From the NCBI GenBank assembly GCA_000092065.1, contig CP000596.1: a stretch of 64,000 nucleotides of DNA; one strand, given 5' to 3'. Below are positions 27,681 through 64,000 of this stretch, in pieces. The notes beneath the pieces were generated by a model. That model ran no database searches and had not been told where the DNA came from. It worked only from the letters and a program-made list of their open reading frames with translations. Position numbers and translations under genes: made by a program. Each line of letters opens with the position of its first letter. The first letter of the stretch is position 1. This stretch comes from Ostreococcus lucimarinus (Eukaryota).

Positions 27681-28937
27681 TCAACAGCACGCGCCGCCGG
27701 CGGGGGCGGCGCTGGATGAGGCGGCGACGGGCGACGGACCGCAATCGAACAAGCCGTAGTGCGTGGAGCGGTCGCCGACGAGGGTGAAGTACTTGCCGAG
27801 CCAGGTCTCGCCGACCATGGATCCCGTGTTCCCGCACACGAGCATGGGTTTGTTCTTTTCGAATCGGTGATGGTCGTCGAGTTGGTACGCGTTCGGCGCG
27901 CCCGGTAAGCCGCCGTTGTACACGGCGTATTGGCCGTAGTCTTCGCAGAGCGTCTCCAAGCAACCCGGGGGAAGCTTGAACAGGCGGTAGGTGATGGAGT
28001 AGAACTTGGCCTCGCCCAAAAGTTCTGCGAGCGCGGGATCGCGCACTTCGATCTCGTGACCGGCCAAAACGCGCGGATCGGTAAAGCCGACGGCTTGGCA
28101 AAGACGCTTGAAGTCTTCGACGTACATGGCGCCGCCGAGGCACTCGCCGAGTAAAATTTCGTGCGAGCGCAAATCTTCCTGAAGTCTTCGGTCGCAGTAC
28201 ACGTCGCTGAAGTAAAACTCGCCGCCGTTCGCCAAGACGCGGTACGCCTCGCTCAACACCGCGGGCTTATCGGGGCTCAGATTGATGACGCAGTTGCTGA
28301 TGATCATGTCCACCGACGCGTCGGGCACCCCCGCGGCTTTCAAATCCTCAATGGTTCCCTTCTCAAATCGCATGTTCGCCTTCGCGTACCCGAGCGTCTT
28401 CGTGCAGTATTCATCCACGTATTTTCTCGCCACCTCCAACTGTCCATCCGTCATGTCCACTCCCAACACGCTTCCGTTTTCGCCGACGAGCTTCGCCGCG
28501 ACGTAACAGTCTCGTCCGCTTCCGCTTCCCAAATCCAGCACGCGCAGTCCATCGATCCCGATCGGCGTCGGACTACCGCATCCGTAGTATTTCGCCTTGA
28601 CCTCATCCGGCACCTCTCGCAGCGCCTCGCGCACGGCTTTCGGGATTTGTTCGCTCGGCGTGCAGCACGCGCTCGTCTTCAAGTCGTCGCTCGTGCTCAG
28701 CGTCTCGCCGTAGTACTTTTGCACGCTCGCGCGCACGCTCGCGTCGCCGCCCGGTGCGATGATCGTGGCGCCGAGCAGCGCGTCCAGGGCGCCGCTCGAG
28801 CTCGAGCTCGCGCGCGCCCGCGCGCGCGTTCGAGCCGACGTCGCGCGCGGTGACGTCGCGCTCGAGCGCGACGAATCGCGACGGCGCGTCGCGCGCGTCG
28901 CGCGCGCGGGCGCGGCGGTGACGGTCGCGGACGCCAT
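27681..28937 (-). CDS. Arsenite S-adenosylmethionine methyltransferase (ArsM/AS3MT), the all-cysteine paralog
   Basis: Motifs VQKYYGETL, SACCTP, VLDLGSGSG, ISNCVINL and LLGECLGGAMY. The start was chosen at ATG 28937 (MASATVT...), because the ATG at 29111 is only 9 nt from the upstream gene's stop. Confidence 0.8.
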   Translation of the reverse strand: MASATVTAAPARATRATRRRDSSRSSATSPRATSARTRARARASSSSSGALDALLGATIIAPGGDASVRASVQKYYGETLSTSDDLKTSACCTPSEQIPKAVREALREVPDEVKAKYYGCGSPTPIGIDGLRVLDLGSGSGRDCYVAAKLVGENGSVLGVDMTDGQLEVARKYVDEYCTKTLGYAKANMRFEKGTIEDLKAAGVPDASVDMIISNCVINLSPDKPAVLSEAYRVLANGGEFYFSDVYCDRRLQEDLRSHEILLGECLGGAMYVEDFKRLCQAVGFTDPRVLAGHEIEVRDPALAELLGEAKFYSITYRLFKLPPGCLETLCEDYGQYAVYNGGLPGAPNAYQLDDHHRFEKNKPMLVCGNTGSMVGETWLGKYFTLVGDRSTHYGLFDCGPSPVAASSSAAPAGGACC

Positions 28938-29119
28938 CGTTCGCGCGCGCGTGGATTTCGGCGCTCGCGCGCGCTCGCGTCGATCGCGCGCGCGTCGGTG
29001 TGGAGATCGCGCGTCGACGCGCGCGGGTCGAGTCGGGACGCGCGAGCGGCGGCGAAGCGCGCGAACGAAGGCATCGCGATGGTGACGACCGCGGCCGGCG
29101 GCGTCGAACATTGATGACG

Positions 29120-60565: not shown

Positions 60566-61819
60566 CTAATCGAACAAGCCTTCGCGCGGAGGCGCCTTCT
60601 TCACTTCCTTCGGCTTCGTGGAGAAGAGCCCTCCGTCGTCGGAGTCTGAATCTGAATCAAACAATGCCGTTGGTGACTTTTTCGGCTCCGGTACCGCGAT
60701 CGACATGGACGCCACGGCGGACGACGGCGGCACAAGCGTTTTTGCGTCTGTTTTCTTAGATTCCACCGATTTCAACGCGTCGAGGGGATCGGTGATCGGC
60801 TCCGAAAACAAGTCGCCTCCCGACGGACGTCTGGTAATTCCGAACAAATCGCCGTCGTCGTCATCGGAATCGGAATCGAACAATCCTTTCGGCTTTTTCG
60901 GCGCCGCCGCGGGCGGTTTCGCAGGCGCAGACGCCAAAGGCGCGGGCGCGGACGCCAAAGGCGCTTTCCCGCTCGCGCCTCCGAAGAGACCACCGTCGTC
61001 ACCTTCGACGTCATCAAATAATCCGCCTTTTGATTTGCGAACGTCGTCTCCGAACACATCGTCGAAAGATAACGCGTAGGACGGCGCCGCCTTCTTCGCG
61101 GCTGTCGTCGCCGACGACAAACCGACGCTCGAAAACAAGCCATCGCCGCCGGCGCCAGCCAACGCATACGACCCATCGACGTCACCAAAGTTATTTTCAA
61201 CGTCCGCTAAGTTATCCTCCATGTCCGAATACTCCCCCTCGCTCGACGTCGAGCTCACGAATTCGCTCGAGATATCGCTCTCGAACTCGTCGCTCGAATC
61301 TTCGCTCACCTCGCTCGAGTCCTCGTCATCGCTCGATATGTACGTCCCCCACCGCGCCGGATTCGGATTTTTCGCCACCTTTGGATCCAACCCACAGCTT
61401 TCGTCGTGATAGTACGCCGTCGTGCCGATCACCGCCGGCAACGGTCGCCAATGCTCGTTCCCCGTGAGCGCCAACCCGCCGTCGCGCGTCTCCGCCCACC
61501 GTCCACGTATCGCCTCCATCGCCCGCCGCGCCGCCTCCGCGTACGCCTCCGGCGTTTCTCCATCCTCGTTTTCTTTCGTTTCGCTCGCCGAGCGCGCGCT
61601 TTCTTTTCCAACGCCGTCGACCTCGTCGTCGTCGTCGTCTCGTTCGTCGACGCGCTTTTCCAAAAACTGCGAATTGCTCAAGATTCTGAATCCACAGCTC
61701 ACGCTCGCGATCTCGCACGTCGCGTACGACGTCTCCAGCGCGTTTCCATCGACCGCGGTCGCCGTTCGCGCGCACCGCTCCAGCGCTCGCGCGTCGCTCG
61801 CGCGCGCGCGTTCGATCAA
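60566..61819 (-). CDS. Acidic protein with repeated GLFD/GGLF motifs. The start is uncertain: the track start is TTG, and the first ATG is 61519.
   Basis: KGGLFDDVEGDDGGLFGG, KGLFDSDSDDDDGDLFG, GGDLFSEP and DGGLFSTKPK resemble the LFa-type acidic motifs of FAM21-like tails. Confidence 0.45.
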   Translation of the reverse strand: MIERARASDARALERCARTATAVDGNALETSYATCEIASVSCGFRILSNSQFLEKRVDERDDDDDEVDGVGKESARSASETKENEDGETPEAYAEAARRAMEAIRGRWAETRDGGLALTGNEHWRPLPAVIGTTAYYHDESCGLDPKVAKNPNPARWGTYISSDDEDSSEVSEDSSDEFESDISSEFVSSTSSEGEYSDMEDNLADVENNFGDVDGSYALAGAGGDGLFSSVGLSSATTAAKKAAPSYALSFDDVFGDDVRKSKGGLFDDVEGDDGGLFGGASGKAPLASAPAPLASAPAKPPAAAPKKPKGLFDSDSDDDDGDLFGITRRPSGGDLFSEPITDPLDALKSVESKKTDAKTLVPPSSAVASMSIAVPEPKKSPTALFDSDSDSDDGGLFSTKPKEVKKAPPREGLFD

Positions 61820-61924
61820 CTGTCGTCAACGTCGTCATCGCCCTTCGTCAGTCCTCGCGCGCGATTCCGCGCGCGACGCGCGCGTCGACGCACCGCTCGA
61901 TCGTGTCCGAGTCGCCACGGCTCG

Positions 61925-61972
61925 CGCGTCGCGTCGAGCGCGTCGAGCGCGTCGAGCGCGTCGAGCGCGTCG
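61925..61972. repeat. (GCGTCGAGC)4 tandem repeat in a 5' region
   Basis: gcgtcgagcgcgtcgagcgcgtcgagcgcgtcgagc, seen directly. Confidence 0.7.
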
Positions 61973-61987
61973 TCGTCGCCTCGGGAC

Positions 61988-62962
61988 ATGGCGCGATGCG
62001 CCACACGGCGACGAATGGCGTCGCACCGAGACGTCGTGCGCGACGCGTACGCGCGCACCGCCCTGAGCGCGGGGCGCGAGGGATGCTGCGTCACCCCGCT
62101 CGACGCGCGCGTGAAGATCGGGTACACGCGCGACGAGCTGGCGCTCGCGGGAGGCGCGAATCTGGGCGTCGGATGCGGCGCGCCGCATCAGTTCGCCGAG
62201 CTGCAGGCGGGCGAGGCCGTGTGCGATCTGGGGTGCGGTGCGGGCGTGGACGTCGTGCTCGCGGCGCTGAGCGTCGGCGAGCGCGGCGTCGTCGTCGGGG
62301 TGGACATGACGCCGGAGATGTTGCGCGAGGCGCGAGCGCGCGCGGCGGAGGCGAGCGAACGCGCGAACGCCGACGGCCGCGAATGCGCGCGCGCGGAGTT
62401 TCGGTTGGGGGAGCTGGAGCGTTTGCCGTGTCGAGACGGCGAGTTCGACGTCGTGATGTCGAACTGCGTGATTAATTTGTGCGAGGATAAGCGCGCGGCG
62501 CTCGCGGAGGCGTTTCGAGCGTTGAAGCCGGGAGGACGGTTGTGCGTGGCGGACGTGGTGAGTCGAGGAAACGCGCTGCCAGAGGCGCTGAAGACGAACG
62601 AGGCGCTGGCGTGCTGAGTGTCGGGCGCGCACGAGCAGGACATTTTGCGGGATATGCTGCGAGACGTCGGTTTCGTGCGGGCCGAGATTCGCGTGAAGGA
62701 AGAGTCGCGCGAATACATCAAGCACTGGATGCCGGGTTCGGGGGCGGAAGATTACGTCGTCGCGGCGGAGGTGGTGGCGCATAAGCCAGGGACGCTGACG
62801 AGCGTCGTCCAGGGCGCGTGCAAGCGCGTGGGTGAATTGCTGTACGCCGCGTGGTTGGCGCAAGCGCGTCATCACGCCGCGCACACCGACCACTCCCAGG
62901 ACGACGACGAGCCCGAATGCTGCGCGCCGGGTCCGGCGAAAAAGCCGCTTCCCAAGTGCTGA
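61988..62962 (+). CDS. ArsM/AS3MT-family methyltransferase paralog with an in-frame TGA (62615..62617). Candidate selenoprotein with Sec at about residue 210.
   Basis: Track ORFs 61406..62617 and 62618..62962 are contiguous in one frame, separated only by TGA. Motifs GCCVTP, CDLGCGAG and MSNCVINL are present. The TGA aligns with the Cys of LLGECLGGA in the paralog at 27681..28937. Confidence 0.55.
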
Positions 62963-63039
62963 CGATAATGCACCCCTTCGCGCGCGTCGCGAAGGGGTGA
63001 AACGGCTTCTGAAGGCCCTCTCGGACGATTTGGAGATTT

Positions 63040-63092
63040 TCGTGACGAAGCGACGGGTGAAACGGTTTCGCGCCGGCCGTCGCTTCCGACTT
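63040..63092 (+). ncRNA. Candidate SECIS element in the 3' UTR of the TGA-containing ArsM paralog
   Basis: cGUGAc then a 10-bp helix GAAGCGACGG/CCGUCGCUUC, an unpaired GUGAAA (AAA), a mini-stem CGG..CCG, and a 3' cGAc. This is a form-2-like architecture with a RUGA...AAA...GA core. Folded by eye only. Confidence 0.35.
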
Positions 63093-63187
63093 TTTTCCAT
63101 CGCGAGAACGGTCGCTCAAAGGCTATGCCATCGTTCTAAATGGTGTTACAACATTGTAAGAATGTCTCAGAATTTTTTCAGATTTTT

Positions 63188-64000
63188 TCACGCGGGCGAG
63201 ATCACGTTAATCGGCTCACCTCTGAGAAACGCCTCCACGTTCGCCGCCACCATGTCCACGAGGCGTTGTCTCGTCTCCACGCGCTTCCACCCTATGTGTG
63301 GGGTCAAGTACACGTTCTCCAGCGTGTACAACGGCGAATCGTCGGACGGGGGCTCGTTTTCTTGCACGTCGAGCATCGCGCCGGCGATTCGCTTCTCTCT
63401 CAGCGCGACTATTAAATCTCTCTCGTTGACTACGGCGCCTCGCGCCGTGTTGATCAACCGCGCCGTCGGCTTCATCATCGCGAGCGCGTCCGCATCTATC
63501 ATCCCGCGCGTTTCCTCCGTCAGCGGACAGTGCACGCTCACAAAATCCGACGTCCTGAGCAGCGTCTCCAGGCTCACCGCCTCCCACAACCCCTCCTCGT
63601 CGCGCGCGCTCCTCGAGTGACACGTCGCCCGCATCCCGAGCGCTCGACACGCCCTCGCCACCGCCCTCCCGATCGATCCCGTCCCGCCGATCAGCCCGAT
63701 CGTCTTCCCTCGCAGCTCGAACATCGTCGGAAACGTCGTCAACCCACTGAAATCGCGGTTAAAATCTCGCCGATCCCCCTTCCGCAGCGCCGCGTGTCGT
63801 TCGCACAGCCCCACCGCGGCCGCGCTCGCGTACGCGACGACCAACGCCGCCACGCCGTCGGTCGAGTACTCCGGCGCGTTGCACACCGCGATCCCGCGCC
63901 TCGCCGCGGCGGTCGCGTCGATGTTATCCGTCCCCGTGCCCGCCTCCGCGATCAATCGCACGCTCTTCGGCAAGCGCTCGACGTCCACTTTAATCTCCTT
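63188..64000 (-). CDS. D-isomer-specific 2-hydroxyacid dehydrogenase (glycerate/hydroxypyruvate reductase-like). Partial: the N-terminus lies beyond the window end.
   Basis: NAD-binding GLIGGTGSIGRAVARACRALGM. Catalytic region RLINTARGAVVNE...HIGW. The track start at 63988 is GTG, so the ORF continues upstream. Confidence 0.75.
   Translation of the reverse strand, partial: KEIKVDVERLPKSVRLIAEAGTGTDNIDATAAARRGIAVCNAPEYSTDGVAALVVAYASAAAVGLCERHAALRKGDRRDFNRDFSGLTTFPTMFELRGKTIGLIGGTGSIGRAVARACRALGMRATCHSRSARDEEGLWEAVSLETLLRTSDFVSVHCPLTEETRGMIDADALAMMKPTARLINTARGAVVNERDLIVALREKRIAGAMLDVQENEPPSDDSPLYTLENVYLTPHIGWKRVETRQRLVDMVAANVEAFLRGEPINVISPA

Follow-up and report, generated by a model that had tools for sequence, protein, structure and literature searches.

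The DNA considered here is a 64,000-nucleotide stretch of the Ostreococcus lucimarinus genome (contig CP000596.1, assembly GCA_000092065.1), hereafter called the window. It contains a gene for a short ArsM-type methyltransferase with an in-frame TGA, which we call UGA-1 and which very probably encodes selenocysteine (Sec). The gene is accompanied by a selenocysteine insertion sequence (SECIS) in its 3' untranslated region (3'UTR) and by a hairpin close to UGA-1. A second hairpin follows the terminal TGA of the reading frame, UGA-2, and a long-form paralog of the methyltransferase is located elsewhere in the window.

The methyltransferase gene and its relatives

The coding sequence is on the + strand at 62015–62968. 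These coordinates start at the ATG used by NCBI (MASHRDVV...) and include at the 3' end the proposed read-through of TGA-CGA-TAA; the conventional end of the coding sequence is 62962. An alternative in-frame ATG is present upstream at 61988, and the starts of the orthologs fall near the Met at 62015. UGA-1, at 62615–62617 on the + strand, is in frame with both of these ATGs. It is preceded by MASHRDVV...KTNEALAC and is the putative Sec codon of the motif ALAC-U-VSGA (UxxG), at the position of Cys224 in CmArsM and Cys206 in human AS3MT (hAS3MT). The preliminary description of this DNA had reported an in-frame TGA with a frame that continues beyond it, and both are present: UGA-1 is followed by 114 sense codons, VSGAHEQDILRDMLRDVGF...PLPKC, up to the TGA at 62960–62962.

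Pfam finds a single class I S-adenosylmethionine (SAM)-dependent methyltransferase domain (Methyltransf_31, E 7.7e-29). The best NCBIfam model is NF008823, arsenite methyltransferase, with 239 bits over profile positions 6–269 of 272, and this match spans the TGA. The two halves of the protein around UGA-1 are both methyltransferase-like with Pfam and NCBIfam. The protein ends in an extension of about 55 residues, terminating in CC...PKC(U), that is specific to the sampled Ostreococcus-like lineages.

Which cysteine of ArsM is replaced? A phmmer search of PDB sequences gave matches only to ArsM/AS3MT structures, namely 5EVJ (1.5e-25), CmArsM 4FR0/4KW7 (about 1.5e-19), and 8XT7. The alignment with CmArsM places U on Cys224 (ECLGGA), SNCVINL on Cys174, and GVGCGAP on Cys72. 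The four conserved ArsM cysteines (CmArsM 44, 72, 174, and 224) are all accounted for, with the putative Sec at the C224 position. In CmArsM, Cys174 and Cys224 are the metalloid-binding pair among the four conserved cysteines; methylarsenite, MAs(III), stays on Cys174/Cys224, and the last contact of dimethylarsenite, DMAs(III), before it leaves the enzyme is with Cys224 only (PMC6138428). Since it is aligned to Cys224, the Sec would take the place of the ligand to which arsenic stays attached throughout catalysis. The TGA had previously been assigned to the third metalloid-binding cysteine; Cys224 does bind the metalloid, but it comes last in the conserved set of four, and it belongs to the pair of direct ligands.

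A second ArsM gene was also said to be in the window, with Cys in LLGECLGGA, and this is the case. The gene, on the − strand at 27681–29111, encodes a long-form ArsM/AS3MT paralog with an extra C-terminal domain and with Cys at all of the conserved positions (...LLGECLGGA). BLASTP of the paralog against the Sec form (32% identity, E 1e-23) places the TGA codon on the Cys of GECLGGA. The correspondence with this Cys is thus as described before, but the alignment is not ungapped, since a one-residue gap is needed just before it. Because the two proteins are only 32% identical, they are likely to be old, distinct ArsM lineages, rather than recent duplicates.

The paralog and the enzymes CmArsM, human AS3MT, and Chlamydomonas ArsM (4FR0, 4KW7, 8XT7, 5EVJ) share the SAM-methyltransferase fold and the Cys72/174/224 positions with the present gene. 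They have Cys at 224 and an extra C-terminal domain, whereas the short gene has the putative Sec and is without that domain. Bacterial short ArsM homologues have Cys at the UGA position (...AALTGCVSGA, GCVSGA/GCVAGA). Closely comparable is the arsenite methyltransferase selenoprotein of bacteria (NF008823/PRK11873), which is likewise a short ArsM with Sec at the corresponding site and the motif U-V-S-G. It differs in having an in-frame SECIS and GC or GU at this site, whereas the present gene has a eukaryotic 3'UTR SECIS and a vicinal Cys (ACU), and adds the extension described above.

Conservation of UGA-1, the SECIS element, and the UGA-1 hairpin

The ortholog set consists of 32 loci (7 + 21 + 4), including O. 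tauri, five metagenomic orthologs, 21 more from a metagenome scan, and four further loci. The codon at the UGA-1 position is TGA, and not TGC, in all 32, and the frame continues after it, with no consistent termination at the site. The in-frame open reading frame (ORF) after the TGA is conserved in the Ostreococcus-like lineages, with a length of 113–120 codons. The Nei–Gojobori ratios of nonsynonymous to synonymous substitution (dN/dS) are 0.04–0.35 downstream of the TGA and 0.18–0.35 upstream, with dS up to or beyond saturation. Because the downstream values are like those of the upstream part, which indicates purifying selection, the region 3' of UGA-1 is evidently translated. EALAC-TGA-VSGA is likewise present in two distant algal contigs, of which L030 ends in a poly(A) run and is for this reason a transcript in which the UGA is retained. 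In these distant orthologs (L029, 734–1010; L030, 1005–1283), CCPP-repeat tails replace the Ostreococcus-type extension.

The hairpin that had been noted about 80 nt beyond the stop is present, and it has the form of a type II SECIS, at 63020–63110 on the + strand. It consists of helix I, a GUGA internal loop, a 10-bp helix II (GAAGCGACGG/CCGUCGCUUC), an unpaired AAA at 63060–63062, and an apical mini-stem. The GUGA of the core, at 63042–63045, is opposite CGA at 63087–63089, and there are 79 nt between UGA-2 and the core. When the core is kept unpaired, the fold is common to all of the orthologs. AUGA replaces GUGA in one lineage (L031), at the same place, and the SECIS of the L030 transcript is also of the AUGA type. 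In an alignment of 12 orthologs, 92.2% of the helix II and mini-stem cells are paired, compared with 32–46% when the partners are slid. Compensatory changes occur in 8 of the 13 pairs, and the observed covariation score was reached by none of 500 shuffles. A covariance model built from the 12 ortholog elements matches the SECIS at 63020–63110 with 88 bits; it finds no second SECIS in the 64-kb window, where the next best match has 11.6 bits (E 0.6). Lobanov et al. (2007) describe an Ostreococcus style of SECIS, in which the mini-stem is long and a G precedes the UGA core, and the element at 63020–63110 matches this style. ARAGORN finds no tRNA, including tRNA-Sec, in the window.

Within the coding sequence, a candidate hairpin resembling a selenocysteine redefinition element (SRE) follows UGA-1 at 62624–62683 on the + strand. 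Its outer stem is 6 nt downstream of UGA-1, and the conserved 21-bp core (62629–62678) is 11 nt downstream. The minimum free energy is −36 kcal/mol (z = −4.0), and none of 200 shuffles did as well. Across 10 orthologs, 91.4% of the cells are paired, compared with 32–50% for slid partners. There are seven compensatory pairs, and 0 of 500 shuffles reach the covariation score.

The gene thus has a UGA paired with Cys in homologues, a UGA and downstream frame that are conserved, and a SECIS in the 3'UTR, the features expected of a eukaryotic selenoprotein gene. The preliminary reading of the gene as a selenoprotein gains support from the Cys pairing, from the conserved UGA and the constrained frame after it, and from the compensatory changes in the SECIS. 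From these lines of sequence evidence, we are highly confident that the 3'UTR SECIS would direct Sec insertion at UGA-1, and that the product would be a short enzyme of the ArsM type in which Cys151 and Sec201 form the metalloid site.

The public annotations treat UGA-1 differently. The NCBI "predicted protein" of O. lucimarinus CCE9901 (P0001) is 100% identical and 200 residues in length, stopping with ...NEALAC at the first TGA, and prokaryote-style gene callers split all of the metagenomic orthologs at the same place. These calls would be right if TGA 62615 were an ordinary stop, with the 200-residue protein as the product and the downstream ORF separate or untranslated. This is very improbable, as truncation would remove the Cys224 motif together with the final third of the ArsM fold that NF008823 covers. 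Furthermore, every lineage keeps the 114 downstream codons in this frame, with purifying selection acting on them, the site is TGA throughout and never TAA or TAG, and a covarying SECIS follows. The O. tauri gene model (P0004; L001, 2501–3430) instead drops 31 conserved codons around the TGA as a small intron, joining ...GGRLC to EDVLRQML..., although the O. tauri DNA across the site reads ...RTNEALAC-TGA-VTGAHEEDVL... We give an intron an even smaller chance than an ordinary stop. The skipped segment encodes the ArsM-homologous ...LPExLKTNEALAC-U-VSGAHE, in frame in all lineages, the polyadenylated transcript contig L030, from a distant ortholog, retains EALAC-TGA-VSGA, and the entry for this gene in Lobanov et al. 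(2007) reads through the TGA. A sequencing error or a pseudogene is scarcely credible, having nothing in its favor except the presence of a stop codon, since the codon is identical in independent assemblies from many samples and clades and the coding constraint is intact. An ordinary stop separating two genes, an intron, and a sequencing error were therefore all rejected on the conserved TGA, the constrained frame, the SECIS, and the L030 transcript. Neither public annotation is correct, since the O. lucimarinus protein has been cut short and the O. tauri intron is false.

The assignment of UGA-1 as a Sec codon agrees with the earlier literature. Lobanov et al. (2007; Genome Biol 8:R198) list a selenoprotein that they call a "SAM-dependent methyltransferase" for O. 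tauri, O. lucimarinus, and T. pseudonana. The O. lucimarinus entry in additional file 2 of that paper, Chr_16 [125451,126959], prints ...ALKTNEAL-ACUVSGAHEQDILRDMLRDVGF, and this locus maps exactly onto 61451–62959 of the window. It is the same gene, but the ORF as given in that entry starts 564 nt 5' of the annotated ATG. The paper also gives 75Se labelling of O. tauri as a whole. Neither ArsM Cys224 nor hairpins beside the UGA codons are mentioned in the passages of its text consulted here. A selenoprotein family named arsM has been said to occur in prokaryotes and eukaryotes (PMC2398784), and bacterial ArsM with Sec in UxxG is entered as "experimentally verified" in a review from 2026 (PMC13188914). 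For the O. tauri ortholog, ostta17g00710, protein abundances are given in a table of selenoproteins that is based on proteome data. The identity of the gene as a selenoprotein has therefore been known since 2007, and only smaller details given here may be new. Our result is a correct independent rediscovery of a published selenoprotein, and it validates the initial reading, which was made from the sequence alone and rightly took the source for a green alga.

Several points weigh against the Sec-containing arsenite methyltransferase proposed here. The NF008823 score of 239 bits is below the curated cut-off of 263, and phmmer aligns the Cys44 equivalent (CC at residues 24–25) with an offset of three residues. 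Folded in isolation, the SECIS has a modest z-score of −2.06, with 4 of 200 shuffles as good. An Rfam scan of 61800–63400 at E ≤ 10 gave no SECIS family, just chance matches to miRNA and sRNA families; we take this as a limit of the library, in which the SECIS models are probably mostly animal derived. The UGA-1 hairpin lies within coding sequence, and its conservation arises partly from protein constraint. Finally, the grounds for Sec incorporation and for arsenite methylation are indirect here.

The terminal TGA and its hairpin

What is the function of the TGA at 62960–62962? The preliminary description had taken it as the real stop. The codon is where it was said to be, but its role as a stop is doubtful, as it may itself be a Sec codon. 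It is followed by CGA and TAA (62960–62968, + strand). Termination here would be the conventional reading, but it is more likely that the codon specifies a second Sec, which would give a C-terminus ...PKC-U-R. In every Ostreococcus-like lineage, about 10 in all, the ORF ends in Cys-TGA-X-TAA/TAG, where X is CGA, CAA, CAG, AAC, or GAT (R, Q, N, or D). The tail before the invariant Cys diverges among the lineages (PLPKC, PVSQC, PSKSC, AHKSC). For reference, the stop is TGA in 11 of the 31 long ORFs of the window, and TAA or TAG occurs at +2 in 1 of the 31. The reading frames of the distant orthologs L029 and L030 also end at TGA, in ...CCPPGC-TGA-GGA... (GCUG-like) and ...CCAPGA-TGA-TAA.

UGA-2 is followed by a perfect 12-bp hairpin, CACCCCUUCGCG / CGCGAAGGGGUG, at 62971–62999 on the + strand, which resembles stem-loop 1 (SL1) of SELENOS or an SRE. 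The hairpin folds in all of the lineages. It starts 8 nt after UGA-2 here, and the spacer is 8–10 nt in all of them. Among 13 sequences compared with both arms anchored, the fraction of paired cells is 94%, against 41–59% for slid partners; such anchoring favors pairing, so that the slid values are the fairer standard. The pairs were counted on a motif-anchored alignment, since the MAFFT alignment had shifted four of the sequences by 1–2 nt. Compensatory changes are seen in four of the nine pairs, as in CCCCUUC/GAAGGGG, CCUCUUC/GAAGAGG, and CCUCGUC/GACGAGG.

There are precedents for stem-loops at such positions. The SRE of SEPN1 is 6 nt from its UGA, and SELENOS SL1 is 9 nt from the penultimate Sec codon of that gene. 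Elements of the SRE/SL1 type are stable conserved stem-loops located 6–9 nt 3' of a Sec UGA, and the hairpins found here are spaced by 6 or 11 nt at UGA-1 and by 8–10 nt at UGA-2. As in the known elements, the stem-loops start a few nucleotides past the UGA (6–11 nt here). SELENOS SL1 follows a penultimate Sec codon, and the UGA-2 hairpin is likewise at the start of the 3'UTR. The SEPN1 and SELENOS elements have no sequence similarity to the hairpins described here, and the host in the present case is a green alga. A literature search of limited reach found no description of redefinition elements in algae. If the predicted role of these hairpins is correct, SRE-like elements would here be described for the first time in a green alga, as far as the literature examined goes.

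These observations suggest that the TGA at 62960–62962 is probably a second Sec codon, with ...PKC-U-R as the C-terminus. TrxR (GCUG) and SELENOS have a penultimate Sec, and the proposed tail would likewise consist of Sec, one residue, and a stop. Bacterial double selenoproteins provide another parallel. Methyltransferase/UXPK-star, ArsM/AhpD, and ArsM/DUF2284 double selenoproteins (NF047649, NF041537, and NF041536; Haft and Tolstoy 2025, as listed in PMC13188914) have an ArsM-like methyltransferase with a UxxG Sec and a second Sec near the C-terminus, as is proposed for the present gene. These three families match the present protein weakly and partially, with 130–136 bits, far below their cut-offs of 460–575. 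The tail here would be Cys-Sec-X-stop, and not UXPK-stop. If the present gene does encode two Sec residues, it would be the eukaryotic equivalent of the methyltransferase/UXPK-star proteins of bacteria.

For this terminal codon, there is an alternative that we consider rather unlikely, though deserving of attention. TGA 62960 could be the true stop, with the TAA or TAG two codons later conserved as a fail-safe against SECIS-driven read-through, and the hairpin could have another 3'UTR role or act as a suppressor of recoding. The entry in additional file 2 of Lobanov et al. (2007) ends the O. lucimarinus protein at ...PKC--, and a back-up stop would likewise be conserved. However, TGA has persisted across about 10 lineages whose synonymous sites are saturated, even though it accounts for just over a third of the long-ORF stops in the window, and the preceding Cys is invariant while the remaining tail diverges. 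The spacing to the TAA or TAG is always exactly one sense codon, and a covarying hairpin occurs at SRE-like spacing after UGA-2. Furthermore, the O. tauri protein as drawn by Lobanov et al. (2007) has ...KCUQ, and the bacterial methyltransferase/UXPK-star double selenoproteins are known. We therefore lean, with some reserve, towards the second Sec codon and the wider proposal of which it is a part: that the gene encodes a double selenoprotein, under-annotated in O. lucimarinus, with a Cys-Sec-Arg tail, in which both UGA-proximal hairpins stimulate recoding and one SECIS is used.

A 16-nt motif, GGGUGAAACGG(C/U)UUC, occurs twice in this region, at 62994–63009, right after the UGA-2 hairpin, and at 63054–63069, in the SECIS apex. 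It is found only in the O. lucimarinus-like clade.

Proposed role of Sec and the surrounding sequences

The mechanism that we propose is as follows. The eukaryotic Sec machinery would recode UGA-1, directed by the type II GUGA-core SECIS 427 nt downstream, and the conserved hairpin 6–11 nt past UGA-1 is predicted to help, probably by favoring recoding. In the enzyme so formed, Cys151 (SNCVINL) and Sec201 are predicted to hold As(III), or a related soft metalloid, between them for methylation from SAM. As ligand and as leaving group, the selenol would stand in for the thiol. A Cys-Sec-Arg tail would complete the protein if, as is probable, the terminal TGA, which has a hairpin of its own nearby, is a second Sec codon. 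Arsenite is suggested as the substrate by homology.

Why would the alga have both a Cys and a Sec form of ArsM? Arsenic biomethylation and volatilization by O. tauri were the subject of a 2013 paper in Chemosphere, as cited in PMC5398495, and the long-form Cys paralog could account for the biomethylation. If this paralog carries the bulk of arsenic methylation, the Sec enzyme could be specialised, either for high affinity at the arsenic concentrations of seawater or for another soft metalloid, such as selenium. The presence of Sec in place of the Cys224 ligand raises the question of whether a selenol tunes affinity or turnover at nanomolar seawater arsenic. It also suggests a possible link between the selenium and arsenic cycles in picophytoplankton. 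Moreover, with two UGA codons, a hairpin for each, and one SECIS, all in about 500 nt, the gene would constitute a compact natural system in which a single SECIS serves both a distant and a very close UGA.

Green algae use UGUAA as a poly(A) signal. Beyond the SECIS, at 63145–63160, there is a palindrome, GTTACAACATTGTAAG, that contains TGTAA on both strands. It is followed at 63174–63188 by the T-rich sequence TTTTTTCAGATTTTTT. Both are conserved in the 3' regions of the orthologs, between convergent genes, and GTTACAACATTGTAAG together with TTTTTTCAGATTTTTT is probably a shared bidirectional poly(A)/termination region.

The gene order is common to all of the sampled lineages (60566–63988 of the window; L001–L007): a WD40 gene, a gene on the − strand for an acidic Ser/Asp-rich protein, the Sec methyltransferase gene on the + strand, and a 2-hydroxyacid dehydrogenase gene on the − strand. 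Just 5' of the methyltransferase start codon, in what would be the leader or promoter, there are four tandem copies of the 9-mer GCGTCGAGC, at about 61929–61972.

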